From the NCBI GenBank assembly GCA_918797485.1, contig CAKKNE010000002.1, positions 5,952,001 to 6,016,000 on the forward strand: 64,000 nt of DNA. The letters run 5' to 3'. This stretch comes from Pelagomonas calceolata. Its lineage: Eukaryota. Below are positions 7,680 through 59,493 of this stretch, piece by piece. The translations under genes and the position numbers were made by a program. Under the pieces are notes generated by a model. It saw only the letters and a program-made list of their open reading frames with translations, did not search any database and was not told the origin of the DNA. Every line of letters begins with the position of its first letter. Positions within the stretch are counted from its first letter, which is position 1.

Positions 7680-10256
7680 ATGGACTCCACCGAGACGACA
7701 CCGCGGCTCCAGCGGCGCCAGAGCTCCATTGATTTGTTGGCGCGGAGCCAGCGGCGCAGCGCGCGGCCGCCGTCGCGCCTTCGGCGCTGGATGCGAAGGC
7801 TCGCAAGCCTCCGGCGGCTCCGGAGCAAGGACGCGGTCGAGGCGCACGTCAACCTGCGGATGGACCAGGACGCGCGCTGGACCGTGAAGGAGTACCTCCT
7901 GGGGCACGTCGTCGGCCAGTTCGTCATGCTCTTCGTCATCGCCGTGGGCCTGGTCTGGGCGGGCACGCTCGCCTGGATCGCGGCGTGCACGTATCTGACG
8001 CCGCGGCGGCGCGCGAAGACCCCCGACTACAACACCAGCGTGATCCAGGCCCTCTGGTTCTCCTGGGGCGTCTTCTTCGACCCGGGGACGCAGACCGGCA
8101 TCGTGGCGGACGAGTACGTCGCGGTCAAGGTCGTGGCCGTCGCGTTTTCGGTCGTGGGGTTTTTGTTTAACCTCGTGCTCCTGGGGTTGATCGTGGAGCG
8201 GGTCAAGATCTTTCTGGACCGCATGGTCGAGACGTACGGGAAGATCGTGTGCACGAAGCACATTCTGGTGCTGGGCTGGACGGACCGGACGCTGTTTTTG
8301 TTGGGAGAACTGGCGGAAATGGCCCAGGGCAACGCCGCCCAGAAACGGACGACGATCGTCGTCCTGGGCGACCTGTCCCCGGCGGAGCAGCGCGCGGAGA
8401 TCCGGCAGGCCTTTCCGTCGTGGCGGGCGGCGTTTCCCGCGGTCGACGTCGTCTGCCGGCAGGGGAGGGCCTACGAGGTCGAGGACCTCGCCCGGGTCTC
8501 GGCCCAGGCGGCGGACACGCTCGTCATCCTGGGCGCGTCGCGCATCCCGAGGGACGCCGACGCGCAGACCATATCGACCGTGCTGGCCCTGAGGGCGCTC
8601 CCGTCGGCGCCCAAGTCCAAGTTGATCGCCGAGTTCCGCCTGTCGCAGTCGACGCACGTCTTCGATCGCGTCGGCGGCGACCGGAAATTAGTACCCATCC
8701 TCGCGGCGACGGTCGTCGACGCCGCGTTGGTGCGATGCGCGCTCGTCCCGCCCGTGGGCGCCGTGGCGCTGGACCTGTTGTCGTTCGAGGGCCAAAACAT
8801 AGAAATGATCCGCGCCGACAGGGCGGGCTGCGGCGGGCGGACCTTCGAGGACGTCAGGCGGCATTTTCGGACGGCCGTGGTCCTGGGCCTGGCGAGCAAG
8901 GAGAAGAAGAGCGTCGTGCTGGCGCCGCCCGACGACCGCCTCGTCGTGGACGACGACCTCGTCGTGTGCATCGCCGAGGACCAGACGGCGCTCTCCGACA
9001 TTAGCGAGCGCGCGACGCCGAGGGTGACGCCCCAGGACGTGCTGCGGCGGGCGGCGGGGCTCACGGGCCGCCGCCGGCTGGAGACGATCCCCGTGGACGT
9101 GCCGCGCGTCGACGTGGCGCTGGTCGGGTGGAACGACCGGGTCGTGCCGCTGCTCCGGGAGCTCGACCGGCACGTCGCGTCCGGCTCGGTCGTGCACGTC
9201 CTGTCCGAGAGGAGGTTGGACGAGCGGGAGCGCTCGCTGAAGGAGGAGGGGCTGACGCTGAAGGGCGAGTCGGTCTTCCGGGAGGACGACATCGGGCTGC
9301 GGAACGTGACCCTCGACCACGTCGTCGGCTTCGCGACGGACGTCTCTCAGCTCCGGCGGCTGCCGCTCGCGACCCTCGAGGCGGCCATCGTCATGGCCGA
9401 CATTGATCAGAACGCGGTGCAGTCGACGTCCGGCGCGGAGCTGCAGCTGGCCGACTCGGAGACGATCACCTCGACGCTGCTGCTGAGAGATATGCACGAA
9501 CGCTGTCGAGCCAAGGGCAAGGCGGAGTCGCCGCTGGTCATCGTGCCCCAGTTCCTGGACGTGCTGACCACGCGCGTGTTCAAGAGGCATCCCGGTTTGT
9601 TGGAGGAGGAGAGCGACGCCAACGCGATGGTCGGCGAGGACTCGTCCGACGACGACGCCGCGGCGCCCGGGTCGGCCTTTGGTGTGGGGCGGACGCTGTG
9701 CGTGCACCGGAACTTCCTGGAGACCGCGGCGCTGACGTCCTCGGCCTTGTCGATCTACGGCGCGATGGCGCTGCGCGCGCTACTAGGATTGGACGAAGCC
9801 CTGGGTCGACGCGCCGTCGGGCCGCCCCGGCTGCGCGTCGTGCGCTGCGACGCGTGCCTCGAACGGCCGTCGATCCGCCCCCGAGCCTTCGACGACCTCA
9901 ACGACGCCGTGCGACGGAAGTACGGCGCGTTAATGGTCGGGTGCTGTGTGGAAATCAAACCCGTGTGTCGGGTGCTCCGGCATCGCCAGCAGGCGTCGCG
10001 TCGATGGCGTGGAGGACGACGCGACGATTCAGCACGAACGCGCCGTAAAATTTTGATTTCCACACAGGTCGGGTGGTGCCGGCGGAACCGCGAGTCCCAC
10101 GGGCCGGACTACGGCGACCCGGAAGTGAACCCGCCCCGGGGCCGCGCGCTGGCCTGGCGCGGCGACGACCTGCTCGTCGTCGTCACGTCGAGCGGCATCA
10201 TGAAGTCCATCGTCGAGGCGGCGGCGCGCGGCGACGTAGCGGTCAGCGACCTTTAA
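7680..10256 (+). CDS. CASTOR/POLLUX(DMI1)-like cation channel with RCK domains; one intron 9936-10067; ~814 aa
   Basis: TM - pore (ALWFSWGVFFDPGTQ) - TM, then RCK signature HILVLGWTD and a second RCK (VALVGWND). The 132-bp in-frame introner is read through by the raw ORF. Confidence 0.85.
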   Translation: MDSTETTPRLQRRQSSIDLLARSQRRSARPPSRLRRWMRRLASLRRLRSKDAVEAHVNLRMDQDARWTVKEYLLGHVVGQFVMLFVIAVGLVWAGTLAWIAACTYLTPRRRAKTPDYNTSVIQALWFSWGVFFDPGTQTGIVADEYVAVKVVAVAFSVVGFLFNLVLLGLIVERVKIFLDRMVETYGKIVCTKHILVLGWTDRTLFLLGELAEMAQGNAAQKRTTIVVLGDLSPAEQRAEIRQAFPSWRAAFPAVDVVCRQGRAYEVEDLARVSAQAADTLVILGASRIPRDADAQTISTVLALRALPSAPKSKLIAEFRLSQSTHVFDRVGGDRKLVPILAATVVDAALVRCALVPPVGAVALDLLSFEGQNIEMIRADRAGCGGRTFEDVRRHFRTAVVLGLASKEKKSVVLAPPDDRLVVDDDLVVCIAEDQTALSDISERATPRVTPQDVLRRAAGLTGRRRLETIPVDVPRVDVALVGWNDRVVPLLRELDRHVASGSVVHVLSERRLDERERSLKEEGLTLKGESVFREDDIGLRNVTLDHVVGFATDVSQLRRLPLATLEAAIVMADIDQNAVQSTSGAELQLADSETITSTLLLRDMHERCRAKGKAESPLVIVPQFLDVLTTRVFKRHPGLLEEESDANAMVGEDSSDDDAAAPGSAFGVGRTLCVHRNFLETAALTSSALSIYGAMALRALLGLDEALGRRAVGPPRLRVVRCDACLERPSIRPRAFDDLNDAVRRKYGALMVGCCVEIKPVCRVLRHRQQASRRWRGGRRDDSARTRRKILISTQVGWCRRNRESHGPDYGDPEVNPPRGRALAWRGDDLLVVVTSSGIMKSIVEAAARGDVAVSDL
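9936..10067 (+). mobile_element. Introner intron 1 (132 bp, GT-AG)
   Basis: TSD gtcgggtg at 9936-9943 and 10068-10075. TIRs ctgtgtggaaatcaa (9944) ... ttgatttccacacag (10067). Confidence 0.95.
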
Positions 10257-10489
10257 GGTTTCCTCGTCGTTATAAGTATGGTTTATTTCCGGCGTTTGCA
10301 CGGCCGACTCCTCCCCTGCTCTGCTGGAATATTTATACAGAAACCTTATTGCCATTTCGAAGCTCCGGTTGGGCATCCTAAACGAGCAGGGAGCAGGCTT
10401 TTAGGAGCTTGTTCCTTTGTAGGTCTTCCTTAATTTATTGATGTAAATTTATTATTAGATTTTCATCCAGGAGTGTACCATGCCCCGAG

Positions 10490-10745
10490 CTAGTTGCACG
10501 AGGCGTCCGGGTGACACCGCTTCTCGCCGCCGTCGACCAACGCGTCGCCGCTTAGCGCCGGTTCCTTGTACGCGCGCTCGAGCAGGCCCCAGACCGCCGT
10601 CTCGAAGACCTCGAGGGCCTCCCGCTCGCTATGGAACGCGTACGCGCCCACGCGGGCGTGGAACGCGGCGTAGGCGCCGCCGTCGCCCGCGGCGCGCCGC
10701 AGGGGCTCGCGGCGCCGGAGCACGTCCGTCTGGTTCGTGCTCGGC
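10490..10745 (-). pseudogene. 5'-truncated coding fragment of unknown family
   Basis: Coding-like codon usage (TDVLRRREPL...EALEVFETAVWGLLERAYKE) with no ATG, embedded in AT-richer intergenic DNA. Confidence 0.4.
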
Positions 10746-11258
10746 AGCGAGGACGTCACACTACACGCGAGCGCTCCTGACCCCAACCCCCCCGGAGGGG
10801 CGTCGCGTAAAAACAAAATAACAAATCCTACCGCTCGAGCTTTTCGAGGAGAGAACGCGACTCCTCCGCTCCGAGCATAGTGGCTGCAAGTTCCTCGGAG
10901 CCGCTAGTCATGCGCGTAATAAAACAAAAAGGCCCGACAAGCTGCCACACTAGACCTGTGTACGAGAGGTCACGAACGCAGACTATATCCTGTACGACCG
11001 CCCCCGATCGGTCCATAGCGAGCGTCAATCGGTGTCACTAGAGGTGCTGCGCGCGCCGACGCGTGCGGCGCGCTGGCGCTTTCAAAGGCACCGGGGGCGG
11101 ACCGGGCGGGCGCGCGGCGGATCCGCGGGGTCCGTGGAGGGCCTGGGACCTGGCTCTGGGACTCAGGTCGCGACACGCTTCCCCGCCGCCGCCGCCGCCC
11201 GCCAGCCGCCGCCCCCCGTCCGCATCCCCGCGACGCAGCGGAGCATGAAACTGGACTC

Positions 11259-11780
11259 TTACCGCTTCACCCATTGGAACGCTTTCCGAGCTTTCTTCCG
11301 GCCCGGCTTCTTGCGCTCGACCACCCTCGCGTCGCGCGTCAACAAGCCCGCCGCCTTCAGCGCCGGTCTATGATTCGGATCATACACCTGCAGCGCGCGC
11401 GCGACGCCCAACCGGATCGCGCCCGCCTGGCCGCTCAGGCCGCCGCCGGCGACGGTCGCCCGGACGTCGAAGGCGCAGGCCGTCTTCGTGGCGAGGAAGG
11501 GCTTGATGACCTCGTCGACGTGCGTGGCCCGCTTGAAGTACTCGACCATGTTTCTCCCGTTGACGCGCACGCGGCCGTCGCCCGGGAAGACCCACACTCT
11601 TGCCGACGAGGACTTGCGCCGGCCCGTCGCGTAGGCTCGTCCCAGTTCGTCGCGGACGGCCTCGCGCGCGAGCGGTTGCGGCGCAGCTGCTGGTGCTGCA
11701 CTGGAGAGCCGAGTGCGCGCGGCGACGGCGACGTCGCGCGGCCGCACTCGCAGTGCTGAGCGTCCGAGACGTGCAATCAT
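11259..11780 (-). CDS. rps9: Nucleus-encoded organellar (probably mitochondrial) ribosomal protein uS9
   Basis: [42 protein letters not shown]-terminal QWVKR. Arg-rich N-terminal presequence from ATG 11780. Confidence 0.95.
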
Positions 11781-12236
11781 CGTCTCACAATTATTGCAAC
11801 GCAGGTGGTCTCGCGCCGCAGCGACGCACAGCGTCTCGAGGATCGCGCGAGAAAAGAGGACCTGCTCCGTTTGGGACCTCTCACTTTGCGCCAGGCTCAC
11901 GTGATCCCTGCCCCTATTTTACGGGTTTTTTACTCTCGCAAAATGGATGGTTGAGAACGGTCACTGATCTCACCACGTACCTCACAACTATCAGCTCGTT
12001 TAAAAATTGTGTGGGCTTTGGAGGCCTTAGACTCGAGGCATACGAGCTTGTACTCGGCTGCAAGGACGCGCCGCGGACGACGCAGCATTCGTGCCGCTGA
12101 TTGCGCTACGACAGCACAACACCTTTTGGTGTCCACGACTCGCACGTTTTCTGGCGCGCACGCGGCACTGAAAGGCAGCTAGACAACCGTGCTCTCCGAA
12201 CGCAGGGAGAGCACCGCGTGGTCGCATAACTGAGCC

Positions 12237-13481
12237 ATGCGAGCTGTACTGCTGTTCGTCGTCAGTGGCGCAGCCCTGCACTCAAATCACCAGAGCGCAC
12301 CACTGCTGCCGCAACCGGACCGCCGCCTCTTCATCCGAGCGCTAGCGTCGACCGCGGCGTCGGTGCCGGCAGTCGCGAGCGCCGAGCGCACGGGCCTCCT
12401 GGACGTCGACGCGACGGGCCTCTCGTTGGGGCGGGCCTTCGAGCTCTCGCTGCCGAAGCCGGAGCTGCCAAGGGCGAACCGGGCGCCGCTCGACCAGAAA
12501 TTCGCCGTGTGCATGATGCGGAGTAGTTACAACACCGTCGACGAGCTCGACTTCTGCGCCATGGACGCGTTCCAGAAGCGGTTCTTCCTCATTCGCCAGG
12601 ACGAGTGGCAGCCGTACCTCGCGCGGGCCCGCGCGGCGCTGGGCCGGCCGCCCGAGCAGGGCGACCTCACGGACCCGCTCTACTTCGACTTCATCTCGTT
12701 CGCCCAGTACGAGACGATCAACGACTTCCTGAAGAGGCCCCGGAAGCTGTTCGAGGAGCTCGTGAGCGCCGAGGGCGAGACGCGCGTCGTCGCGCGGAAC
12801 GCGTCGTCCGTCGCGGATGATCGACTCCTCGCCGCGGAGCACGGGCGGCGAGTGGGCGACAAGGTGCTCGATTTCGTCCTCGAGCGGTTCGCGTCGACGT
12901 CGTACACGCAAGTCCAGGTCTCGCCCCGTGTGGAAATCAGCCAGTGAGTTAGGTTGACGTCGACGGCGCGGGACGCCCGAAATTTGATTTCCACACAGGT
13001 CTCGCCGGAGCTCTCGCCCGTCGCCGTCGAGGCGAACGCCCAGAAATTAGTCACGCTGCTCGCGGTGCTCGGCTTTAGCATCGACAGCGTTGCGGAGCGG
13101 CGCGGGAACAAGTTGCTGGTCACCTTTATTGGGGCGGCGAACTGCTGGGGCCTGCGGAGCCTGAGCCAGGGCAACCCGCTGGCGCGGCCGCCGCTCGTGA
13201 ACGACTTCGGCGCCAAGGTCGTCGGATGTGTGAAAATCAAAATTTTACGGCACGTTCGGCGTGGCGGTTCCTCACCGCTCGACGGGGCCAGCACGGCAGC
13301 GCCATCGCCGAGAAATGACTTCGTGAAGAATTATCGGGTGCACCCTACGCACTGGTCGATTTCCACACAGGTCGTCGGCGCGTGGCTCGCGCGGTGCGGC
13401 TACGCCGGGAGCCGCGAACCCGCGGCGACTACGTTCGACGCGGCGAGGTGCGCGTACACGCACGAGTTCCGGCTCGCGTGA
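12237..13481 (+). CDS. Probable plastid/thylakoid protein of unknown function; introns 12918-12998 and 13218-13370; ~336 aa
   Basis: Signal peptide plus RR-hydrophobic-ASA (Tat-like) leader; block QGDLTDPLYFDFISFAQY. Removing the two introners joins ORFs 12237 and 12954 in frame. Confidence 0.75.
12918..12998 (+). mobile_element. Introner intron 2 (81 bp, GT-AG, short derivative)
   Basis: TSD gtctcgcc at 12918-12925 and 12999-13006. TIRs ccgtgtggaaatca ... tgatttccacacag. Contains in-frame stops. Confidence 0.95.
13218..13370 (+). mobile_element. Introner intron 3 (153 bp, GT-AG, element reversed)
   Basis: TSD gtcgtcgg at 13218-13225 and 13371-13378. Ends atgtgtgaaaatcaa ... tcgatttccacacag. 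Confidence 0.95.
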
Positions 13482-13493
13482 GTAATTATCAAT

Positions 13494-14039
13494 TTGTGTG
13501 TCGTAAATATTATAGAATCGTTAGTTGAGCGGACGCGCGGGTGCGGGGAGCCGGTCCACGAGGAACGGCGGGAGCTTCGCGAGGCCGGCCTCTGCATCGT
13601 GAACCTCGCAGCCGCGCTCCCCCAAGTCACCTTCCTCGTGCCGCACACCATTAAAAATAGGGCCGGATTTCCAGGCTGCAGAAACAACGGGAAAGTCATC
13701 CAGGACGTCGGTCTTATGCCTTCGTGCTCCGTCCAGCTTGACATCTCGTGGGGCACGCACGTCTCCCACCACACCAACACGAAGACCATTATCGCAGCGG
13801 CGAATGGCCGCGTCCCCGTCGTCGAGATGCCCACGAACACGCTAGCGGCGGGCTTCCTCTTCGGGGAAGTCGTTCCGCAGAGCGCCTCGGTCCAGCAGTG
13901 GGCCTCGGCGGTGACCAGGGCGCTCGAGCGATCGGACGATGACCGCTCCGCGATGCAAGCCTACGCGCGCACAATGTATTCCTGGGCCAACGTCCTACAC
14001 GCAGACCTCGTCGACTATCTATACACTCTTTCCTCATAA
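13494..14039 (+). pseudogene. Probable 5'-truncated glycosyltransferase (GT-B-like C-terminal) fragment
   Basis: No ATG at the start; begins 13 bp after the previous stop. IAAANGRVPVV and MQAYARTMYSWANV resemble the end of GT4-type domains. Confidence 0.45.
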
Positions 14040-14272
14040 AACGTCACGGACGGTCACGGAGAGACGTGGCATGCTGCGAAGCCCGTATCCCCATTTTCCG
14101 ATGGGAGTCATGTATTCAGGGGAAACACCGATTCTACTACGGAAGTGGTCAACCGTTTAGCAGAGCCTGAACAGCGCGCTATGTTTAATTTCCAACCAAG
14201 GAGTACAAATATTATTCTTCACCGTGCATGTGCGTCGAGGTTTACTCCTCGGCAGAGACAGCAGCGGTTTTG

Positions 14273-14342
14273 GGGCGCGGCTTCCAGGGCTCCCGCGTGC
14301 GTGAGGAAATCCCGCGTGGGCTAGCGGCCTGTAAGACACTAG
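14273..14342 (+). repeat. Partial intergenic element with terminal motif (14320-14342)
   Basis: gggcgcggcttccagggctcccgcg...ggaaatcccgcgtgggctagcggcctgtaagacactag matches 3016-3078. Confidence 0.9.
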
Positions 14343-14451
14343 GCATCCCTAGGGCCTAGCAAAAGCAAGCAAGCGCCGCGCGCGAGCTAGACAACAGTGC
14401 TATGCAAATCGTCTAGGCTGTCGACGCGAGAACTCACGCCACACACGAGCG

Positions 14452-15858: not shown

Positions 15859-15885
15859 TACAGTATTTATTTATTTAGTTTTATT

Positions 15886-16836
15886 TTAGGCGGGTAGCAG
15901 CGGCGCGGCGCCGGCCGCCTTGATGCGGAAGGACTCGACGACGTCCCCCAGGACGCGGTCCTCGCCCGACGACCACAAATCGTCCAAACAACCGGCGACG
16001 ACGCCCATGACCTCGGACCCGCCCGGCAACAACGTGAGCCGCGCGCGCTGGAGCCGGCGGATCCCGGGCGTCATGACCTCGGAGCCGGCCTCGCCCACGC
16101 GCGCCGTCGTGCCCTGGATGTCCGTCGCGATGTCGAGCTGGAGCACGTCGCCCCGCACGCTCAGCGAGCCGGGCACGGCGGTGGACGCGCGCGCCTGGAT
16201 CTGCTGCTTGCGCGCGCTCGCCGTCGCCTCCCCGTCCCGTCGTTCGCAGACGAACTGCGCCAACGCGGCGTCCTTGCCTGCGCGCGAATCAACGTCGAGC
16301 GGGCGTCGCGTCGACGGCGTGCGGGTCACGATTCGGCCGCGGGCGGAGACGCGCAACGAAAGTGGATGCGCGCACCGGTCCCTGCCGAGGTCGTTCCACT
16401 GCTTGATCTTGCCCTCGGGGAAGTAGGGGAGGGCCTCGGCCTGCTCCAGCAGTTCCTTGACCTTGAACAGCTCCACCGTGACCACCTCCGCGGTCCGCAG
16501 GTTACCGGCCGAAAAGATGACGCCGCCCCTCCGCACGATGTCGCCGTCGATCGTTCTCCGAATGGCGAACCAGTCCTTCGGGAACGTCAAATCGAACAGA
16601 GGGTCCACGTACGTGCGCAGCTTGACGTCTTGGTTCTTCTGCGGGAGGTCCTTTTCGTCCACGCCCAGGGCCTGCGCCGTCGTCCGGACCGTCGCGACGT
16701 CCTTGAACTCCTCGGCGCGCGCCGGTGGGACCGGCGCGAGTAGTGCTGACGCTGCGGCGCCGCGCAGCAGCTCTTGGCGCGTGGGTTGCGGCTTGAGCCC
16801 GGTCGTCAGACCAAGGACGAGCGCAAGCAGCCGCAT
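15886..16836 (-). CDS. PsbP-like thylakoid lumen protein; intron 16278-16385; ~280 aa
   Basis: Signal peptide plus TRQELL...PARA leader; YVDPLFDLTFPKDW and terminal VVESFRI resemble the PsbP/Mog1 fold. Confidence 0.65.
   Translation of the reverse strand: MRLLALVLGLTTGLKPQPTRQELLRGAAASALLAPVPPARAEEFKDVATVRTTAQALGVDEKDLPQKNQDVKLRTYVDPLFDLTFPKDWFAIRRTIDGDIVRRGGVIFSAGNLRTAEVVTVELFKVKELLEQAEALPYFPEGKIKQWNDLGRDRCAHPLSLRVSARGRIVTRTPSTRRPLDVDSRAGKDAALAQFVCERRDGEATASARKQQIQARASTAVPGSLSVRGDVLQLDIATDIQGTTARVGEAGSEVMTPGIRRLQRARLTLLPGGSEVMGVVAGCLDDLWSSGEDRVLGDVVESFRIKAAGAAPLLPA
16278..16385 (-). mobile_element. Degenerate introner intron 4 (108 bp, GC-AG, in frame)
   Basis: TSD gtccttgc 16270-16277 vs gtccctgc 16378-16385 (7/8). 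ctgcgcgcgaatcaac TIR remnant; internal ggcgtcgcgtcgacggcgtg matches the family core. Confidence 0.8.
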
Positions 16837-16930
16837 TTATGCGTGGCTTTACGTTGCGCACGACTGGTGCTGGTTCTGTGGACTCTCGACAGTAATGCAA
16901 TGCCGGCTTGCGAGCTGGGATGCCAGATCC

Positions 16931-16953
16931 CTAGTGTCTTACAGGCCGCTAGC
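16931..16953 (-). promoter_or_regulatory. Intergenic 23-bp motif in a divergent promoter region
   Basis: ctagtgtcttacaggccgctagc is the exact reverse complement of the consensus; 95 bp before ATG 16836. Regulatory role is inferred. Confidence 0.7.
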
Positions 16954-17039
16954 AGCGCTTGCTAGCTAGGGAGAGAGTGCTGGGTCTGTGGTTAGCATCT
17001 GACACAGGCCAGCGCCTTCAGCGCGCCCGTGCGCCATCG

Positions 17040-17663
17040 ATGCGACGCCTCATGCGCCCCCTCCTCCTGCCCCTCATCGTGCATGCGCTAAAGAGCACGG
17101 ACATCAAGAGCGTCGCCCCGGTGCAGCGCGCGGCGGCGGGGCAGGTCGTGCTCGCGCCGCGCAACGAGTACAACCACTTCCTGCGGCAAGCCGCCGTTTT
17201 GGTCGTGGAACACACGGAGCGGGGGTCGCTCGGCGTGTCGCTGGACTCGCCGACGCTGCTGACGATCGGCGAGGCGGCGAAGGGCTTGCTGGAGGACAGC
17301 GAGCTCGCGGAGAACCGACTCTTCATGGGCGGCGAGTACGGCGGCGACAGCGCGACGATGATCCACGCGTGCGAAGACGTCGCGGGTGCGCGGCGGCTCG
17401 GCGGGTCGGATTTGTTCCTGGGGGGCCTCGCCGACGCGGCGAAGCGCGTCAACGCCGGCATCAACCGCCCGGAGGACTTCAAGTTCTTCTTCAACTTCTG
17501 CAAGTGGGCGCCGGGCGAGTTGGACGACGCCATCGCCGACGGGCGGTGGCGGGCGCTCACGGGCGTGCCGCGCGAGGTCGTCCTCGACCAGGACCCGTTC
17601 GCGGACCGGGGGAAGCTCTGGCGGACGCTCGGGCGGGCGGCGAAAAGGAATCATCGTGTGTAA
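17040..17663 (+). CDS. DUF179 (AlgH/YqgE-like) protein
   Basis: FLRQAAVLVVEHTERGSLGVSLDSP, LFMGG, FKFFFNFCKWAPGELDDAIADGRW, LWRTL. Confidence 0.85.
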   Translation: MRRLMRPLLLPLIVHALKSTDIKSVAPVQRAAAGQVVLAPRNEYNHFLRQAAVLVVEHTERGSLGVSLDSPTLLTIGEAAKGLLEDSELAENRLFMGGEYGGDSATMIHACEDVAGARRLGGSDLFLGGLADAAKRVNAGINRPEDFKFFFNFCKWAPGELDDAIADGRWRALTGVPREVVLDQDPFADRGKLWRTLGRAAKRNHRV

Positions 17664-18522: not shown

Positions 18523-18582
18523 GGTTTCACAGTTAAATATATAGACTTCTAGCGGACCGCGGGTGGCGTGCGCGACACCACG

Positions 18583-19607
18583 CTATCGCCGCGACGTGGC
18601 GCTGCTCGAAGGGTGGCCGTCCCAGCGCGTCCCCGGCGGCGCTGGCGTGGGCGGCGCGCCCGCCAAGCCTGCGACGTGTAGCGCCAGGGCGCTCCAGTCC
18701 AAATGCGAAATATTCGGGTCCATCGCCGCGATTTCGAAACTGGCCGCCAGATGCGCCCCCAGCGGCATCGCCGTGCGAGTCGCGGCGGCGGCGTCGCGGA
18801 TCAGGCGCGCGTCCTTGAGGCCGTTTGCCATGCTGAACCCTCCTTCCGAATGGTCTCGGCGGGCGATCCTATCACCGTACCCTCGGTAGATGGCGCAGTC
18901 GAAGATCGTCGAAGTCAGCATGCGCAGCACCTGCTGCCGGTCGAGGCCGTGGCCTGTGCGCGAATCGACGTTCACGGCGCTTCCTCCACGCCATCGGCGC
19001 AAATTGCACTCACGGGTTGATTTCCACGCCGAACTTGGCCCTCCGCGAGGTCCAGACCCTCGGCCAGCGCCTCGATCGCCCCCGCGATCATGAAGTTTCC
19101 CGTCAGCTTCGCGGCCGCGGCGGCGCCAGCGGAATCCCCAAAGTCGAAGCAGCGCTCTGCGGGGGCCGCGTGGGACAGCGCCTCGTCGATCGCGCGTTGA
19201 CGCAGCGCGGCGTCGCCGCCCGAGAGGGCGAAGGAGGCCTGGCCCGCGCGCATGTTCTCCGGCCGGGCGAAGACCGGGGCGGCCACGAAGCCGACGCCTG
19301 CTTCCTGATGTTTCCTCTCGAGGTCTGTCGCGCAGACGGGCGACAGCGTCGAGACCGAGACATGCAAAAGCCCGGGCTTGGCCGCGGACAGGAGCTCGTC
19401 GGCGACCGCGGTCGCGGCGGCGTCGTCCGGGACGCAGCTCACCACAGTCGTCGACCGCGCGACGACGTCGGCGACGGACGCCACAGTCACGGCGTTTTCG
19501 AGCGTCTTCGCAGCATGTCGATCAAAGACAACCAACGATGCCTTCGAGAGCTGCTCGCCCAGCGCGCGCCCCAGGTTGCCGAGGCCTACGAGGCCCAGCT
19601 TTGCCAT
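18583..19607 (-). CDS. Beta-hydroxyacid dehydrogenase (3-hydroxyisobutyrate/6PGD NAD-binding family); intron 18954-19039; ~312 aa
   Basis: GLVGLGNLG Rossmann motif, VAAPVFARP, AKLTGNFM, GLKDARL. The 86-bp intron restores the frame (LAEG|HGLDR). Confidence 0.92.
18954..19039 (-). mobile_element. Degenerate introner intron 5 (86 bp, GC-AG)
   Basis: TIR remnants ctgtgcgcgaatcga / gttgatttccacgccg; TSD decayed (gccgtggc vs aacttggc). Length mod 3 matches the ORF frameshift. Confidence 0.8.
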
Positions 19608-19693
19608 TTGTTCTGCTTGCTGGAGTTCAGTTATGGATGGATTGCAGTCGTGCGCCAGGCTACAGCATAGATAGTAACACAGGCTCCTTGCTT

Positions 19694-20179: not shown

Positions 20180-21560
20180 TCACGCGTGCAACGCGAGCAC
20201 CTGTGAAGCGGCGACGCCCTGGAGCGGCGTGCCGTCGGCGAGCTTCACGTCGCACGTGCCCGCGTCGCCGTCGACCGCGACGACCTCGCCCGGCCGGAGC
20301 GCGCCCTCATGCGCCACGTCGACGGGCACACCCGGCGCGAGCGGCGCCTGCGTCTGGTTCGGCTTGCGCAGGCGGCGCCGCGCAACGTTTGAAGCCGTCA
20401 CGACGTCGCCCGCGACGTCGTAGGTCGGCCCCGGCGCGCGCACGCGCGTCACCGCGACGCCGATCCAGGCGAGGCCGCTCCGCGCGCAGAGGCAGAGCTC
20501 GACCTCCTCGCCCACGTTCAGGTCGCCGAGCGGCGCCGGGGGCGCCTCGTCCTCGAGCACCGCGGCGCCGGCCTCCGCGCACGCCTTGGCCGTGGCCGCG
20601 GCGGCGATCGCGGCCGCCGCGGCCGCGTCGCCGTTCGCCGCGGCGAGCGCCTGCTCGACGATGCCCAGCAACCGCTTCGGCTTGGCCGGCTTGGCCTCGA
20701 AGAGGTCCATGCCGATGCCTGTGTGGAAATCAACCAGTGCGTCGGGTGCGTTTCTCGGCGACGACGCGGCCGTCCTGGCTCGGTCGAGCGGTGAGGAATT
20801 CACACCGCCACGCCGTCGAGCAGGCGTCGCGTCGATGGCGTGGAGGACGACGCGATGATTCAGCACGAACGCGCCGTAAATTTTGATTTCCACACGGGCC
20901 AATGCCCAGGCCCAGCTCCCGCTCGTCCGGTTGGGCGTGGCTCGTCAGCGCGCAGATGAACTGCTTCTGCTCCCGCTCGACGCGCGCCTCCCACCGCCGG
21001 ATGGCCTGGGCGCACCGGTACCCGTTCATGACCGGCATCTCGATGTCCAGGAAGACGAAGTCGTACAGCCGCGTCTGCATCTGCGCGAAGGCCTGCCAGC
21101 CGTTCTGGGCCACGTCCACCACGTACCCCTTCCGCTCGAAGGTCCGCTGCAGGTAGCGGCGCACGGTGTACGAGTCGTCCGCGACCAGCATGCGGCCCGC
21201 GCGGCCCGCCGGCAGTTGTTGTAGTGTCTCGCCCGACGCCGCCGCGAGCGTGCGCATGCGCACGACCGGCGCCAGGGGCGATGTCAATGATAGGCCGTCG
21301 GCCGTCGCGCCGGACGTGTCGTCGCCGCTCGACGCGCCGCCCCGGCTCGCGTCGTCGCTGCCCCCCGAGGAGGAGTTTTCTTCGGTCTTGTGGCGCTTCG
21401 GGGGGTTCTCCGGCGCCGGCTCGTCGGTGGGGCGCTTCTTGTCGGCGTCCCGCGTCTCCGCGTCCGGGGGCGGCCGGCCGTGCGCCGGCGCGAGCGCCGC
21501 GAGGCGGTCGTAGACGGCCGCGAGGGTCTCGCCCGTGGTGAGGGGGGCGGGCTGGGCCAT
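20180..21560 (-). CDS. Response-regulator receiver protein with C-terminal Tudor-like segments; intron 20719-20905; ~397 aa
   Basis: LVADDS, FVFLDIEMPVMNGY (phospho-Asp), ALTSH and, after splicing, GMDLFEAKP. Confidence 0.9.
20719..20905 (-). mobile_element. Introner intron 6 (187 bp, GC-AG)
   Basis: TSD gccgatgc 20711-20718 vs gccaatgc 20898-20905. TIRs ctgtgtggaaatcaa ... ttgatttccacacgg. Confidence 0.95.
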
Positions 21561-30700: not shown

Positions 30701-33700
30701 GCGCGAGACGACGCGCAAGCGCGCGGGCCGCATCATGGCCACGAAGCGCGAGCGGCGCGCGGCGCTGCTCCGCCGCAGCCGCGCGTCGATCGACGCGGAC
30801 CTCGGCGCCGGCGCGCTCCTGCTGCGCCTGGCGGCGCGGGACGTCGACGCCGCCGGCGCGCTCGGCGCGCACGTGGCGAAAGCGGGCGTCCACCTCGACG
30901 TCGAGGCCTTCTGCGCGGAGCTGCGGGAGCTCCACCTGCGCGGGCGCGAGGCCGAGGTCCGCTTCGGCCAGTCCATCCGGTTGCCGCGCGCGCTGCTCGA
31001 CGAGGAGGCCGAGGCGACCGACGACCACGCGAACGGCATCGTCGTGCTGTCGGCGGCGCACGTGAGGCGGTACCGGGCGCTCGTCGCCGAGGCGGAGCAC
31101 GTCCTCCGTCGGTGCGCCGACGGCACGGACCGCAAGGAGGTCGACGACCTGACGGTCCGCGTCCTGAGCTGCGCCAAGCAGGCGCTGGACACGTTCGACG
31201 AGAACGACGACGGCGCCGCGCGCCGCGCGGCCCGCGAGGCGGTCAGCGTGGCCAAGGACGTGCGCGACGCGGTGGCGCTCCACCGCGTCAAGGTCCGAGC
31301 GACGACGGGGGGCGAAGACACGCTCTGGTACGAGCTCTCGGCGCACACGACGCTCCAGTGGTTCAAGGACAACCGGGAGCGCAGCCGCCGCATCACGGGC
31401 GGCGACGACGTGTGCCTCTGGCCCTCGGACGGCGCCGGCCCGGAGGCCGCGCGCGCGCGCATGCACCGCCGGAGCAAGCGGACGCCCGAGTCGATGCTCC
31501 AGAAGTACGCGGCGATCCGGGCCGTGGACGCGCGCGGCCTCGCGCACTGCTTCGAGGTGCGCATCGTGAACCCGGACGCGCTCGGCGAGGACAAAATCAC
31601 GGCGCTGATGGGCGCCGCGCGCGACTCGGACATCGACACGGTCAAGCTGCTCTACGACGGCGTCGACGCCTGTGTGGAAATCAACCAGTGCGTCGGGTGC
31701 ACCCGACAATTCTTCATTAAGTCATTTTTCGGCGATGACGCGGCCGTCCTGGCTCCGTCGAGCGGTGAGGAACCGGTATCACCACGCCATCGAGCAGGCG
31801 TCGCGTCGATGGCGTGGAGGACGACGCGACGGTTCAGCACGAACCCGCCGTAAAATTTTGATTTCCACACAGGTCGACGCCGAGGTGCAGGAGGCGCGGC
31901 GGGGCGACGCGCCGACGCAGCGGGACGCCCGCTATGCCTGCCTCCCCTGGCCGGCGCGGCCCGACGCGTGGGACGCCACCGGCAAGACGGCGCTCCACCA
32001 TGCGCTCCTGGCGGTGCGCGCGTCCGTCGACGTGTCGTTCGAAGCGACGGCGGCGGCCGTCGACGTGGCGCGACTCCTGCTGGACCGCGTCGGCGACGCC
32101 GACGCCTACGAGTTTGGCGCCGACGTGACCACATTCATGGCCGGGGACGTGCCGGACGACCTGGTGCCTCGACCCCTGGTGATATGCGGCTCCGCCACGT
32201 TCGAGGGCATCACGTTCGAGGACGCGAACCGACCCACGGCCAGGGAGAGCTTCCGGGACGCGATCGGGGGCGTCGTCGGGCGGGAGGTGGAACATCTGTC
32301 GCTCGCGCGCGTGGCGGCGGACGGCGTGGTCGTCGCCTTCGGGATCGGCGCGACGGCCGACGAGCTCGCGGCGGCGGCGCCCGGGGCGAAGAGCTCGTCC
32401 TGGGGCTCGGCCATCGGCGCGTCGCCGCTGGCCTTCGGGGGGTCCGACGTCCAGCCCTGGATCGCGGCCGTCGCGTCCAAGCTGCGAGCGGCCGAGGACG
32501 ACCCGTCCCTCCTCGACAACGCCCTCGCCGCGGCGAGTACCAGCTGCGGCTTGTATACAACATTCGCCAAGGTCAAGACGACGAGCATGGACCTCAAATC
32601 GACGACGGCCGCGGCGATCGCCGTCGAGAGCTACGGGGCGGCGGTCGCGAGGGGCACCGCCGGCCTCGGCGGCGAGGCGGACGCGCCGAGGGACGAGAGG
32701 GTCAAGCTCCTGGACGGCCTGCTGGCGCACATGTTCGCGCGCGGGATAGCGCTCACGCCGGAGGCCGTCGCGCTCGCCCGGAAGCAAGGCCTGCTCGAGC
32801 GGATTCGCTACGTGTACGTGGAGCACGTCCGCGACCGCGACGCCCTCAAGGAGATGCTGGTCGCGCGGACGGACGTCTTCCTGCGGAGCGGGCCGCCCGC
32901 CGAGGGAGAAGATCCGGTCGCGGAGTGGGAGCGTCCCGTCTTCAAGTGCAAGAACCTCCAGGACGCCTCGAAGAAGATGTGGGACGAGCGGCACCGGTTC
33001 CTGAACAACCAGAAGATCTTCCGCTACCTGCTCTTCATGATGATGGTGCTGGTGGTGGCGTTCTTCTGGGTGGGCATGGACTTCGTGTTTCTGTCGCGGG
33101 ACGGCGCGCAGCAGGCCGTGGCGATGCGCTTCGTCGACGAGGAGTGGTCGCCCGGGAACACGTTCATGGAGCTGGCGACGCCGGGCGACTGGTGGGCCTG
33201 GGCGGAGGGGCCGCTGCTGGACGCGCTCTACGAGGACCCGCTGCCGGTGTGGGACGGCCGGGGGCGGCCCCGCGCGGCGGCGGCGGCGCAGCGGCGCTTC
33301 CCCCTGCTCGGGGGCCTGGGCACGGCCGTCGGCGCGCCGCGTTTGCGCATGCTTGCCACGAAGCCGGGCAAGAGCGGGCCTACCGGCGCCTGCGGCTACG
33401 GCCGGCTGCCGGGCGCGAAGAGCGACCGGGCGCGCCTGGCGGATCCCAAGGAGGAAAGTTTCTGCTTCAGCTACTACTCCGAAAAGACGGAGCTCAAGAA
33501 AGACCTACGCGCGACCGACGCCCGCGTCGGGAAAGCGCTCGAGCACCGAAAAACCGGGGAAGGGTCGTGGCAGGGGTGGCGCTGGCGGGCGCCCAAGGTC
33601 TACGGCTACCAAAAGGACCTGTTCCACGGCTACCCGGGAGCCGGGGGCTACCTCGCGCACTTTCCCCGCGACCCCGAGGCCGGAGCGGCGCTCGTCGAAG

Positions 33701-35548
33701 GCCTCAAGAACACGTCCTGGATCTCGGCGAACACGAGGGCGGTCTTCTTCGAGGCCGTCGTGTACGCGCCGGCCGACCACTGGGGGTACAACCTCCTGGT
33801 CGAAGTGGCCCTGAACGCCGAATTCTCGCCGACGGGCGCCGTCGTGACGAGCGGCCGCGTGCAGTCGTCGCGCATCTTCCTGTACGACACGTGGCGCGAC
33901 TTCGTGCGCCTCGTGCTCGAAGTCCTCGTCGTGCTCTACGTGTGGTACTTCGAGATGCGGGAGGAGGTCCAGCAGATCACGCTCAAGGCCCTCTCCGGCG
34001 ACGCCGCCCAGTCGGAGATCAAGGCGCTCCGGGAGTGGCGGCGGAACTTCGCCTCCGCGCTGGGCGAGTACTGGAACGCGCACTTTAACTTCCTCGACGT
34101 CATGCGCATCCACGTCTTGTACGTGTGGATCGTGGGCGTCCACGTCTGCGGCGTGTGGTTCACGCACACCATCCCCTGGCGCGACCTCATGTTCGATAGG
34201 GAGCGCGACCCGACCGCGTACGTCAAGGACGCGGCCGACGTGTCGTTCGCGCTCCAGCTCGCGCGGGTGCGCATGATGTTCGTGGCGCTGTACGTGGCGC
34301 TGTGCTTCCTGAAGCTGCTCAACATCATGAGGGTCCAGGACGACCTCTTCGTGATCATCATCATCGAGATGTTCAAGAAGGTCATCTCCTTCCTGATCGT
34401 CGTGCTCATCATCGTGAGCGGCTTCGCGTTCTTCGCGTTCTTCTCGCGCATCGGCGGGTCCCAGGCTGTGTGGAAATCAAATTTTACGGCGCGTTCGTGC
34501 TGAATCGTCGCGTCGTCCTCCACGCCATCGACGCGACGCCTGCTCGATGGCGTGGCGGTGTGAATTCCTCGCCGCCCGACCGAGCCAGGACGGCCGCGTC
34601 ATCGCCGAGAAATGACTTAGTGAAGAATTGTCGGGTGCACCCGACACACTGGTTGATTTCCACACAGGTCCCAGGCGGCCATGGGGGGCACGCCCGACAA
34701 GATCGGCGGCGGCGACGTCTTCTGGCACACGCTGTTCCAGCAGTTCGCGCAGCTCAACGGCGACTTCGACTTCGCGGAGAGCTGGCACCTGTGTGGAAAT
34801 CAACCAGTGTGTCGGGTGCACCCGACAATTCTTCACTAAGTCATTTCTCGGCGATGACGCGGCCGTCCTGGCTCGGTCGGGCGGCGAGGAATTCACACCG
34901 CCACGCCGTCGAGCAGGCGTCGCGTTGATGGCGTGGAGGACGACGCGACGATTCGGCACGAACGCGCCGTAAAATTTTGATTTCCACACAGGCTGGCACA
35001 CGGCGCAGCTCGCCGGCGTCGCCTGGACGCTCTTCGCGCTGATCGTCCTGCCCATACTGCTCATGAATCTGCTGATCGCGATCATGAGCGAGGCCTACGA
35101 GGAGGTCAAGGCCCACGCCGCGGCGCGGTTCTGTCACCTCCAGCTCGACACGCACTCCGACGAGTACGCGCGGAAGCGGCGGCAGCGGCTCGGCAGCGGG
35201 ACCGGGAAAGGATACACGTGGGAATTCCTCACGCAGTGGATGGTGCTCATATTCGCGAGCGTCTTCTTTCCGTTTTTGGCGCTCTACGACCTGTATTGCA
35301 GGGCGTGCGCCAGCCTCCGGGCCCTCTACAAGTACACGGAGGGCTTTTTCGAGATCGAGGAGGAGTTTGCGGGGACCGAGACCCTCGCGCGGCGCCAGGC
35401 GCGGCGATGCTTCTACGCGTGCTTCGCCAGGACGCGCGCGTCGGGCGCGAAGGTCGTCCCCACCACGCCCAAGGGCGGCGCGGCGGCGTTCGACGATGAG
35501 ACGCTGCTCCGCGAGTCGCGGCGGCGCTCCGTAGCTAAAGTGTTGTGA
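24750..35548 (+). CDS. Giant (~3388 aa) multidomain polycystin/TRP-type cation channel; introns 31662-31872, 34458-34667, 34781-34991
   Basis: Three introner excisions join ORFs 24750, 31672 and 35063 in frame. PKD2-like features WWAWAEGPLLDAL, WISANTRAVFFE, pore QLNGDFDF, S6 LLMNLLIAIMSEAY. N-terminal ARM-like, UBA-like, Tudor-like, IQ-like, SAM-like and ankyrin-like segments. Confidence 0.85.
31662..31872 (+). mobile_element. Introner intron 7 (211 bp, GT-AG, full length)
   Basis: Perfect TSD gtcgacgc at 31662-31669 and 31873-31880; perfect TIRs ctgtgtggaaatcaa/ttgatttccacacag. Confidence 0.97.
34458..34667 (+). mobile_element. Introner intron 8 (210 bp, GT-AG, element reversed)
   Basis: Perfect TSD gtcccagg at 34458-34465 and 34668-34675; perfect TIRs. 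Confidence 0.97.
34781..34991 (+). mobile_element. Introner intron 9 (211 bp, GC-AG, full length)
   Basis: Perfect TSD gctggcac at 34781-34788 and 34992-34999; perfect TIRs. Confidence 0.97.
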
Positions 35549-40343: not shown

Positions 40344-40356
40344 TACTAAGTTCTAA

Positions 40357-51395: not shown

Positions 51396-53992
51396 TTAGA
51401 CCATATCTCCGTCGGAGTCGCTGCTGTCGTCCGCGATGGCGAAGCCGCCCGCGGACGGCGTCGTCGCGACCTTGGCGTACTTGGGTTTGCGGTTGCGGCG
51501 CCGTCCGGGCAGCTCGAGGGACGGCGGCGCGGGCTTCGGGAAGAGCCAGCCCAGGAAGAAGCAGTCGTCGTCGTCGTCGGGCGCGTCCACGGGGCACGAC
51601 GCCTCGAGCCCCCGCACGTCCCGGCCGGCCCGGTCCACCTGTGTGGAATTCAACCAGTGCGTCGGGTGCACCCGACAATTCTTCACGAAGTCATTTCTCG
51701 GCGACGACGCGGCCGAGAACGCGCCGTAAATTTGATTTCCACACAGCGGTCGACGGCCGACGCTACCACCACTCCGCCGGTCGGCGGCGCGTCGAAGACG
51801 CAGGTCGCCTTCCGGGCGTCGCGGCCGTCGGCCAGGCCCGTCCGGCGCTCCGCGAGGGGCGACGCGTGCGCGTCGACGTAGAGCCGCACGACGACGCCCG
51901 CCGCCGCGGCGTCGGCGCACGACACGGAGCAGACCACGATCGACCGCCCGCGCGCGCAGCACCGCGCGAGGAGCGACGGCGCCCGCGTCCGCGTCAGCGA
52001 CGCGTCGACGGTCAGCCGCGCGTCGAGCTCGTCCACGGGGTCGCGCGCCGGCGCCGGCTGCGTGATCTCGTCGGCGAAGGCGTCCAGGCACTCGAGCAGC
52101 CGCGCGCGCGACGCCCGGCGGTCGGACGACTCCCCGGCCGGCGGCGGCGGCGCCTCCTCCGGCTCCGAGGGCGCCTCCGCGGCCCGCTCGGCTTCCCGCG
52201 CGGCCCGCGCCTTGTCGTCGAAGGCCCGCCGGAGGTCGGCGACGGCGTCCGCCGAGACCTCGTCGTTCGGCAGCTCCACGACCTCGACCGAGTCGCGCAC
52301 GCCGCCGACGCTCTCCGCGACCCAGACCTCGCCGCCCACGTCCTCGAAGGCCACCCACATCTCGCCCTTGGGGCCCAACCGCCGCCGCGTGCCCACGAAG
52401 TAGTCGCCCCGCCCCAGCGGCAGGGCGGCGCCGTCGACGGCGCCCCGCGGCGCGTCGCGCGGCACGACCGCCGCCTCCCGGACGCGGTACACGACGCGCC
52501 GCTCCTCCTCGCCCCGGATGGGTTTCAGGATCGCCTCGCCGTCACGCGCGCCGCGGCAGATGGCCCAGCGCTCCGCGGACCGCCGCGACCGGCGCCTCTT
52601 GGGCGTCTCGTCGCCGACGATCTTCGAGAGCTTGGACTCCAGCGTGTCGTCCTCGCCGTCGCTGGCGTCCTCGTCGCCGTCGGACGTGACGTGCGCCCAG
52701 ACCTGGCCCGACGGCGTCAGCACGACGCTCTCCGCGACGAGCACCGAGCCCAGCGGCGCGCGCGCGACGGCCTCGACGCGCCGCCGCGCGACGGGCTCCT
52801 CCTTCTTCTCCTGCAGCGTCTCGATCTGTCGCCGGGCGTTCTCGGCGGCGGCCTTCGTGGCGTCGGCGGCCTGCTTCGAGGCCCTGGCCAGCCGCTCGCC
52901 GAAGAGGTTCGCCTTCTCGCCGAGCAGCTTCGCGTTGGGCGACTTGTCCATGGCCGCCTTCATCCAGGGGAAGTTCGTGGTCGCGGCCGCGGCGGCCGGC
53001 GCGGGCGCGGGCGCCGCCGGCGCGGGCGCGGGCGCGGGCGCCCTGGGCGGCGGCGACGCCTTCTCCTGGAGCGCCGCGCGGAAGCCGCCGCCGGGCGCCG
53101 CCCGCAGCGGCAGCGCCCCGCGCGAGTACACGTTGCGGAACCACTGCTCCCGCTCGAACAGCGGCGCGGGCACGGGCTCGAGGACGTGGGCGCCCGTGTT
53201 CGCGTTCGTCGCGATGCACCACCCGTCCACGATCCAGGGCTCGTAGTCGTCGTCGCCCCGCCGGATCTCCAGCGACGCGCAGATGCGCACCCACAGGAGC
53301 CCGCGCGCCCGGTCGTCGTCGTCGTCGTCGCGCGGCGCGAGGCGGACTTCCGCCGCCCGGAAGCAGACCCAGGGCGGCACGGCCGCCGCGCGGGGCGCGT
53401 CGAGCCGCGGCGCCGTCCTCGCCGGCAGCTCCCCGGCGTAGTGCCGCGCGTAGCAGTTGCAGAAGTAGCCCGTCATCTCGACGGCCTCGAGCGCCAGCGT
53501 CGCGTCGTTCTCGCCCTCGGTCGCCGCCCGCTCGGACACGCAGACGAAGCGCTCGCCGTCGACCAGCCGCGCCCAGAGCTCGTTCGTCTGCGCGTCCCGG
53601 ATCAGCTCGGGCGCGCACCGCACGCACTCGTGGCGCCGGACCTCGCCCCGGAAGGCGGCCGTGCGGCGGGGCCCGGCGAAGAGCTGGACGGCGCGCGTCG
53701 GCGCGCGGAAGAAGCGCTCGCCCCCGGACGCCCGCGGGACCCGCGCGACGCGGCCGTCGACCTCGAGCCACGCCGGGCCGTCGAGCGTCGCCGCCGGCCC
53801 GGTGTAGCCCGCGCCGGTCTCGAGCCAGAGCCGCCGCCCGACGACGGCGTGGCGCGCCGCGGCGACGCAGCGGCCGGGCATGAGGCGCTCGACGCGGTCC
53901 TCGGCGCCCGCGCCGGGGTAGGGCGCGAGGTCGATCGGCGTGCTCGACGCGTTGACGTGGAAGTCGCCATCCGCGTCCCCCATGCTGGTCAT
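51396..53992 (-). CDS. Hypothetical protein; intron 51639-51754; ~826 aa
   Basis: Long ORF; introner removal (116 bp) joins it to the frame ending at 51396 (ASA|VDRAGRDV). Confidence 0.75.
51639..51754 (-). mobile_element. Introner intron 10 (116 bp, GT-AG, internally deleted)
   Basis: TSD cggtccac 51631-51638 vs cggtcgac 51747-51754; TIRs ctgtgtggaattcaa/ttgatttccacacag. Confidence 0.95.
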
Positions 53993-57574: not shown

Positions 57575-59493
57575 ATGGAGCGCGTGCCTATCAACGCGCC
57601 CCAGGGCCCGCTGGGGCTGATCTTCGAGCCCGAGTCCACGGTCCTCAGCAAGGTCCGCGAGACGTCGCCCCTCTACGGCCGCGTCGAGGTCGGCTGGACG
57701 CTCGTCGGCGTCGACCGCGAGGACGTGTCGCACATGGACGGCTCGCAAGTCACGAAGCTGCTGAAGATGCGCTCGCACAACCCGCAGGGCCGCCACCTCG
57801 AGTTCAAGAAGCGAAGTTTTTCGGTCAGGGAGCTGCCCGGCGACACCGCGGTCGAGGCGCCGAAGCCGCACGTCGCGGTCCGCGCGGACATCGAATTTCG
57901 GGTCGGTTCGATGGCGTGGGAGGGTCACGACGGTCGCTGTCCACGCAGGTCACGGTGCACTCGCCGGTCATGGACCTGTACGCCGTGCTCTGGTCGATCG
58001 ACGTCCTGGTCCAGAGTCTCCTGTTCCACAAGCCGAGCGGCGTGGGCGTCTACGTCGCCTACGTGTTGATCGCGTTCGGCGCGCTCACGTGCACGGCGCA
58101 CGCCTTCCACCTCGAGTGGCGGCGGAACGTGCTCGTCGTGGCGCTGGCCCTGCGCCTCGTCGACGTGGGCCTGCGGCTGCCGATGAGCTGGGACAGCGAG
58201 TGGTGGGCGCTCCAGACGGACGCCGCGCTGCTCGTGCGGCTCCTGACGGGCGCGACGGCCGGGCGGACCATCCAGCTCCAGATGGCCCTCTTCTACCTGG
58301 CGGCGGGCTTCTGGAAGCTGAACACGTCGTTCCTCGACGGCGCCTCGTCGTGCGCGTCGGTCTTTGGGGTCCAGACGGCGGCGCGCGCCGCGCTCATGCT
58401 CGGCGGCGGCGACGACCAGGCCGTCCTGGACTGGGAGGCCTTCCTCGCGCCCCTGGCCCAGACCTACACGCCGTGCATCGTCATCGCCCTGGAGATGTCC
58501 ATCGCGCTCGGCCTGCTGCTCCGGCCGAACGTGGGCGTCCGCGTCGGCGTCCTCTTCCACGCGATCAACGCCTGGGCCCCGCCGGCGCCGAACAACATCG
58601 CGTCCTTCTCCGTGGTCTGCCTCGTGCGGCTCGTGACCTTCGCGCCGAAGGCGGCCGCGGACGCGCTGCACCTCACGATGAGGAACAACTCGGCGCTCAT
58701 CTGCGCGGGCGTCGCCGCGCTGCTGGGCGCGGCGGTGCAGCAGTTCAAGGCGGGCCGGGACCCGCAGTTCATAGCCGCCGTCGGCTACCTCGTCCTCGCG
58801 CCGATCGTCCTGCTGGCGTGCCGCGGCACGTTCCCGGGCGGCAAGCGCCGCGTCCACGCGCCGAGCAAGGCGCGGACGCGGTTCGTGCTGATCGCGCTGC
58901 TCTACTGCGCCACGCCGCTCCTGGGCGTCCTCGAGCTGGGCGCGCCGAACATGTACGCGAACCTGCGCATGCGCGCGGGCTCGAACCACCTGCTCGCGCC
59001 GACGGGCCTGCTCTTCAAGACGGGGCTGCTGGGCGCGGAGACGCTCACGGTCGTCAAGACGACGTCCCAGCACGTCCTGGACTACTACCCCGGCGACTGC
59101 ACCGAGGAGCTCAAGCCCGCCGAGAACCGTGCGCGCGCCTTCGCCTCCGTCGGCATGCGGCCCTTCTTCAACTACGCGCTGAAGCGCGTCATCAAGTGCA
59201 GCTACACGAAGAACACGTGGCGCCCCTTCGACGTGCCCGCGATCGAATTAAGGCGCATCCTCGGCGAGATGAGCGCCGCGGGCAAGGCGGCGACGCTCAC
59301 GTACAAGGACGGCGACCGGACCATCCAGGTCGGCTACGACGCGGACGGCGCCCAGGTCAAGTGCACGGGCTGCACGCCGGACGACGTCGCGTCGCAGGGC
59401 CCGCTGCCCTTCTGGGCCGAGAAGTTCCTGGTGTATTTACCGTACCCCGTGCTCGCCGACGGCAACGGCGAGATGCCCTGCGCCGGGCCCTGA
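57575..59493 (+). CDS. PDZ-like domain fused to an HTTM-like multi-pass membrane domain; intron 57872-57948; ~613 aa
   Basis: APQGPLGLIF...SPLYGRVEVGWTLVGVD (PDZ-like); QMALFYLAAGFWKLNTSFL and MYANLR (HTTM-like). The 77-bp intron joins the two frames. Confidence 0.75.
57872..57948 (+). mobile_element. Degenerate introner intron 11 (77 bp, GT-AG)
   Basis: TSD gtcgcggt 57872-57879 vs gtcacggt 57949-57956; TIR remnants ccgcgcggacatcga/tcgctgtccacgcag; restores frame. Confidence 0.85.

Follow-up and report, generated by a model that had tools for sequence, protein, structure and literature searches.

Do the short repeats that interrupt one coding sequence after another in a gene-dense stretch of algal genome behave as introns, and how did they get there? 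The question is raised by 64,000 nucleotides of the Pelagomonas calceolata genome (contig CAKKNE010000002.1, positions 5,952,001 to 6,016,000 of the forward strand; hereafter the window), which are approximately 70% G+C, densely packed with genes and home to 11 related elements of 69-203 bp with CTG...CAG inverted ends, all inside the coding sequence of eight genes. An earlier note, made from the sequence, had described these elements as introners that are spliced out without leaving a trace. We are highly confident that the eleven belong to a single family of short, transposon-like elements without coding function, located in genes and spliced as introns, with RNA evidence for three of them, and that their insertion was likely the work of a cut-and-paste transposase encoded elsewhere. 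The copies (E1 to E11) and their host genes are listed below in window coordinates.

E1, plus strand: intron 9936..10067, element 9944-10067 (124 bp); GT donor, 132 nt, in frame, no stop. Host ~7680-10256, plus strand, a Castor/Pollux-RCK ion-channel-like gene.
E2, plus strand: intron 12918..12998, element 12926-12998 (73 bp, sense); GT donor, 81 nt, in-frame stop. Host 12237-13481, plus strand, shared with E3, no function assigned.
E3, plus strand: predicted intron 13218..13370, element 13226-13370 (145 bp, antisense); GT donor, 153 nt, in frame, no stop. Host as for E2.
E4, minus strand: intron 16278..16385, element 16278-16377 (100 bp, degenerate, antisense); GC donor, 108 nt, in frame, no stop. 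Host 16836-15886, minus strand, no function assigned.
E5, minus strand: intron 18954..19039, element 18954-19031 (78 bp, degenerate, sense); GC donor, 86 nt. Host 19607-18583, minus strand, a NAD_binding_2 dehydrogenase (Pfam).
E6, minus strand: intron 20719..20905, predicted from sequence and frame, element 20719-20897 (179 bp); GC donor, 187 nt. Host 21560-20180, minus strand, with a response-regulator receiver domain.
E7, plus strand: intron 31662..31872, element 31670-31872 (203 bp, full length); GT donor, 211 nt. Host 24750-35548, plus strand, shared with E8 and E9, an ankyrin and polycystin-type channel gene of 3388 aa when spliced.
E8, plus strand: intron 34458..34667, element 34466-34667 (202 bp, antisense); GT donor, 210 nt, five in-frame stops. 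Host as for E7.
E9, plus strand: intron 34781..34991, element 34789-34991 (203 bp), inverted relative to E8; GC donor, 211 nt. Host as for E7.
E10, minus strand: intron 51639..51754, predicted as for E6, element 51639-51746 (108 bp); GT donor, 116 nt. Host 53992-51396, minus strand, no function assigned.
E11, plus strand: intron 57872..57948, predicted as for E6, element 57880-57948 (69 bp, most degenerate); GT donor, 77 nt. Host 57575-59493, plus strand, no function assigned.

The elements were detected by a search with the terminal inverted repeat (TIR) given in the earlier note and by scanning with a weight matrix for paired TIRs that have direct repeats on their flanks, which together recovered all 11 copies that the note had placed between 9936 and 57948. 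At up to two mismatches the 15-mer TIR occurs 17 times in the window (8 forward, 9 reverse), far above 100 dinucleotide shuffles (mean 0.00 forward and 0.01 reverse, maximum one), and every strong TIR has its pair within a short element. The target duplication is exactly 8 bp, as had been claimed: positions 1-8 of the register give 81 of 88 matches and positions outside it only 1-5 of 11, with perfect duplications in six copies, 7/8 in four and 5/8 in E5. Alignment of the copies yields one family with two distinguishable ends, in which E7-E9 are full length (202-203 bp), the remaining copies carry internal deletions, and identity to E9 over aligned columns ranges from 98.5% (E8) down to 77% (E11). 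The same alignment bears out the reported occurrence of both orientations relative to the host gene, five sense and six antisense. The elements have no coding capacity, the longest stop-free frame of E9 being 67 codons. Contig depth is ~1e4 inside the elements and 20-35 on their flanks, although this depth is no measure of copy number. E8 and E9 (34458-34991) lie inverted to each other only 121 bp apart and are 98.5% identical, compared with 91% identity to E7 at a distance of 3 kb; a local hop is possible for this pair.

Codon bias places every element within coding sequence and fixes the strand, as do stranded reads for the hosts of E2-E5. On the coding strand the upstream target copy begins with GT in seven cases (E1, E2, E3, E7, E8, E10, E11) and with GC in four (E4, E5, E6, E9), the split that the earlier note had given, and the 3′ end is CAG in 11/11 introns. 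A minus-strand reading of E9, which would have a GT donor, was ruled out, given that codon bias and homologs put its gene on the plus strand. The note had further reported that intron length matches the change of open reading frame (ORF) in all 11. The argument is weaker than it appeared: six introns have lengths that three does not divide, two have lengths divisible by three and contain stops, and the other three (E1, E3, E4) are divisible by three without an in-frame stop, so that there is no ORF break for them to explain. Moreover, we set the frame match aside as independent proof of splicing, because any insertion of this kind gives back the original frame once the element and one duplication are removed. 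The statement that the elements account for all but one predicted intron agrees with the single other same-strand frame break in the window, near 43741-43897, but stop-free introns elsewhere with a length divisible by three are invisible to a frame map. At this break, GT..AG introns at 43691-43892 (202 nt) or 43769-43892 (124 nt) would join the frames, with neither TIR nor duplication. It may be a plain GT..AG intron or mark two separate genes, and it may be no intron at all because the downstream ORF (from 43906) is on record as its own protein.

Direct evidence for splicing comes from raw poly(A) reads of four runs mapped to 12150-19700 at 97% likeness. Nine joints were found, three of which are the predicted introns of E2, E4 and E5; the remaining six link pieces of elements and originate from other copies. 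The E2 junction skips 81 bases with GT..AG borders in 45 reads (13, 9, 14 and 9 per run), that of E4 skips 108 bases in 92 reads (38, 27, 16 and 11) and that of E5 skips 86 bases in 39 reads (7, 18, 6 and 8), each in all four runs. At E4 and E5, whose target copies are not identical, the junction reads retain the downstream copy, which locates the donor in the upstream one. The junction check proposed in the earlier note was hence passed by three of the four elements that it covered, while E3, in a poorly covered 3′ end, gave no junction; scarless splicing, which had been claimed for all 11, is exact at E2, E4 and E5 and a prediction for the others.

A wider mapping over 7000-21800 (E1-E6, 90% likeness, three contig sets) was swamped by other copies, and with no splice joint among 15 of its 346 joints it is uninformative for the E1 and E6 junctions. 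Run X15, which is recorded as RNA, shows even coverage of intergenic DNA; it was set aside for questions of splicing and retention. In abundant poly(A) RNA, family copies from elsewhere in the genome appear to be unspliced, each with one fixed flank, mapped at 13372-13374 and 17025 (1219 reads in the wider mapping, 52-84 per run in the 97% mapping); these copies probably lie in untranslated regions.

We propose that insertion duplicates 8 bp of the target. For a target that begins with GT or GC when read on the coding strand, the donor would come from its upstream copy, and either end of the element could supply the CAG acceptor, given that the ends are inverted repeats. Splicing would then take out the element plus one target copy, so that the messenger RNA (mRNA) equals the pre-insertion sequence. 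Donor, acceptor and excision are seen in this form at E2, E4 and E5 and are predicted for the rest. Exonic insertions without a GT or GC donor would be purged, and the survivors would shorten and decay from 203 to approximately 70 bp with the acceptor kept. The insertions themselves would be the work of a cut-and-paste transposase acting in trans, with recent activity. The pattern of change within the copies is uneven: the acceptor-side CAG is changed in 0/11 and the donor-side CTG in 6/11 (Fisher two-sided p 0.012), and the other TIR positions decay equally on the two sides (12 versus 14 changes). All 11 targets begin with GT or GC, starts that make up ~20% of coding positions. Within this class GT is over-used (7/11, against a share of 0.25 among GT/GC sites in eight coding stretches; p 0.007), which could reflect either target choice or survival.

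Protein sequences add to the picture and expose a problem in the public records. The spliced E4 product is identical to the transcript-derived protein P0004 over 280/280 residues, and four further near-identical proteins are without the same 36 E4 residues; P0001-P0003 keep an in-frame insert. NCBI, UniRef and nr have the unspliced 316-residue form, even though reads and transcript splice E4, and the public record therefore misses this intron. Across the E7, E8 and E9 sites, P0261 matches the predicted product exactly, and a weak Ank_2 match spans the E7 site (E 0.0095). All six near-identical wild proteins that cover E8 and E9 are without either element, and three of these begin immediately past the E7 site, which points to DNA with E7 in place. 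Retention was found for E5 in 4/4 wild proteins checked and for E6 in 7/7 covering the site, counts that are biased toward retention because the protein clusters were reached through the unspliced form. P0265 retains E11, and a profile search with E11 exon 2 found no protein or homolog confirming the E11 join. Since stop-free in-frame copies are kept in public records (shown for E4, likely for E3), both the protein sequences and the introner counts of this alga are in part incorrect.

The earlier note had also proposed to look for presence and absence of these introns among strains, and six related loci from one metagenome scan bear on this. A 43-kb genomic contig of a relative (L054; 72-83% identical in genes, ~78% overall, syntenic from 4193 to 20645) is empty at all five sites that it covers (E1-E5), with one target copy at each; it ends before E6 and has no family copies. 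The conspecific contig L055, which is 97-98% identical in coding parts and spans two genes and the intergenic spacer, has E2 present and the E3 site empty, and L059, which may be a transcript, is likewise empty at E3. E3 is missing also from L054, L056 and L058, and E2 also from L056. Four wild proteins show the reverse of L055, with E2 absent and E3 present with indels; partial splicing may account for them, though their contigs (1.7-2.2 kb) are longer than the expected mRNA. Hence, E3 segregates in wild populations, and E2, E8 and E9 appear to do so as well. At 129 bp, the E2 allele of L055 (L055:2467-2595) is longer than that of the window. It shares the ends and the duplication but has an interior unlike the 203-bp family, which suggests a second subfamily from whose 129-bp form the 73-bp E2 of the window derives by deletion. 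A limited literature search found no paper on introner presence/absence within P. calceolata.

Two further observations concern the same loci. An X5 contig ends exactly at 9943, a hint of E1 polymorphism that we do not count as evidence. Just downstream of the E2 and E3 host, the stretch 13500-14340 contains a 185-codon ORF. It shows no RNA depth and has no counterpart in L054, L055 or L059, its X5 contig depth is 5.6 compared with ~25, and it is likely accessory DNA.

Several points weigh against spliced introns of transposon origin. All four RNA runs come from one sample, E6, E10 and E11 are predictions from sequence and frame, and absence in relatives alone cannot separate gain from exact loss. 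A further difficulty is E3, for which no junction was found in four runs, some sense-strand reads inside the element carry the letters of the window, and six molecules begin at 13247 in one run. In addition, the annotated protein P0093 retains E3, and CAH0370048.1 (Pelagomonas calceolata, partial; in the gene cluster of E2 and E3) has E2 removed and E3 kept. Together with the unspliced copies from elsewhere in poly(A) RNA, these observations could mean that the family is as described but that stop-free copies with a length divisible by three (E3, perhaps E1) are poorly spliced, either retained in frame or subject to early cleavage inside the element. We consider this unlikely. Depth beyond E3 is only 0-1.4, and other genes also fade near their 3′ ends, so that few junction reads were possible. 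E4 is equally stop-free and kept on the public record, yet it is clearly spliced, which makes the E3 retention in CAH0370048.1 weak evidence of real retention. Furthermore, indels that shift the frame are found in wild alleles of E3 (P0055, P0103, P0105), and the protein flanking E3 is conserved without the insert.

The enzyme is the other weak point. No transposase family was matched among 62 window proteins scanned with Pfam (44 + 18, out of 333 ORFs), in line with the earlier note, and no hAT transposase appeared among the first 12 of 32 'hat' matches in the 14,639 available rows of the published gene table. Both these results and the location of all 11 window copies in coding sequence could be taken to favor spread through RNA, by reverse splicing of the excised intron, over a DNA transposase. 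However, reverse splicing is expected to yield one orientation and no duplication of this kind, and the mixture of five sense and six antisense copies with inverted-repeat ends and a fixed 8-bp site-specific duplication makes such a route very improbable. It is also rather unlikely that the family is dead and that wild alleles are empty through exact loss of the intron instead of carrying sites where an insertion has yet to be fixed. E3 would fit such a history, being only ~90% identical to the youngest copy and present in several allelic forms yet missing from some alleles, as would the fact that no partner transposase is known. In contrast, E8 and E9 are both full-length copies with perfect ends and perfect duplications; they share 98.5% identity and are absent from 6/6 covering wild proteins, as expected of recent, rare insertions.

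For a family moved by a DNA transposase, the enzyme is likely hAT-like, given the 8-bp duplication and the published classification, which makes the family a candidate member of hAT. An 8-bp target-site duplication is not unique to hAT. The published gene table does contain one Tc1-like DDE protein, but it is an unlikely partner because such enzymes make TA duplications (PMC10138859). The same source reports a hATv family with two ORFs that have no Pfam or HHpred match, and a hATv-like partner could therefore escape detection. A TIR scan of viral contigs gave 53 single matches, all of them lacking a partner TIR and duplication, which we read as chance; the same scan of prokaryote genomes gave one, the truncated end of an element on a 2.7-kb contig of a metagenome-assembled genome (MAG), without transposase evidence. 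This element end (L060:2653-2673) lies at the contig tip of a MAG labelled as a proteobacterium and is likely algal contamination or a chimeric end. It is conceivable, and we put it forward tentatively, that the family remains mobile in wild P. calceolata, with E8 and E9 private to a few strains, E2 and E3 segregating, and a transposase of the haptophyte two-ORF hATv kind that standard domain scans miss.

The family works like a TIR introner of the Aureococcus type, as the earlier note had recognized, and agrees with it in TIRs, 8-bp duplication, both orientations, the junctions of E2, E4 and E5, and empty sites. In Aureococcus anophagefferens, another pelagophyte, introners carry one splice site and take the other from the duplication, insert in either orientation and show an 8-nt cut pattern (as summarized in bioRxiv 10.1101/2020.10.14.339549), a pattern also found in Gozashti et al. 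2022; the likeness drawn here is one of mechanism. However, the closer precedent is P. calceolata itself: the phenomenon is real, was correctly interpreted and is already known in this species. Eleven introner families are listed for it by Gozashti et al. 2025 (PMC12130899), among them fam2 with 340 introns, a 202-bp TIR element and gt (281) and gc (42) donors (supplementary file sd07). The mechanism of fam2 is given as 'co-opt 5′ carry 3′' and its class as TIR DNA / hAT, with a RepBase match to hATv-2N1_EHux. We liken the window family to fam2 by species, length and mechanism, not by consensus sequence: the TIR string is absent from all 14 supplementary files searched, and no fam2 consensus was found there. 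The shortened window copies may be filed under other small families of the same table.

Guerin et al. 2022 (PMC9481584) reported 956 putative introner elements in P. calceolata with GT and GC donors, an AG acceptor and conserved TIRs, and an intron length peak near 210 bp, to be compared with 203 + 8 = 211 for a full-length intron of the window. As far as it was available, their Supplementary Note 3 makes no mention of target duplication, orientation or polymorphism, although published sources may already contain the duplication, orientation and transposase details. In Micromonas, introners show presence-absence polymorphisms in wild picoalgae (Simmons et al. 2015, PMC4540971), and both families thus segregate in wild marine picoalgae; Micromonas differs in being a green alga in which a 3-nt duplication gives the acceptor and the element the donor (PMC11282704).

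Transposons are an established source of mass intron gain, and the window offers a clean worked example of it and not a new mechanism. The small additions are the within-species presence/absence, the retention of E4 on record though it is spliced, and the loss of the acceptor CAG in none of 11 copies compared with six for the donor end. Wild presence/absence alleles make selection on new introns measurable, and the missing transposase is a concrete target. Should the family prove to be mobile today, intron gain could be followed as allele frequencies and caught in culture, in an alga that is cosmopolitan, can be cultured and has large metagenome coverage.

A few other features of the window deserve mention. 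A 21-bp motif occurs seven times between genes (2928, 3057, 14321, 16932, 19700, 23524 and 50172), with five exact or nearly exact copies inside longer repeats (2960-3039, 14270-14340, 19737-19816), similar text at ~38765, 56393 and 57380, and high contig depth near 19350-19843; it may be either a promoter element or a dispersed repeat of a second kind. Another repeat lies downstream of the E1 host (10353-10415), with a contig depth of ~2000-3000 compared with ~30 and ~300 RNA reads with other letters. In all four runs, RNA depth over a major facilitator superfamily (MFS) transporter gene on the plus strand (14452-15858) drops sharply at ~15680, ~170 bases short of the stop codon, and molecule ends pile up at 15674-15688, just past an A-rich hexamer; the drop may reflect early cleavage or library bias. 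The minus strand of 45291-48942 encodes a long WW, ankyrin and coiled-coil protein with 153-bp internal repeats, and a 1-kb low-GC spacer at 6400-7480 has no coding signal and only short ORFs without a Pfam match.

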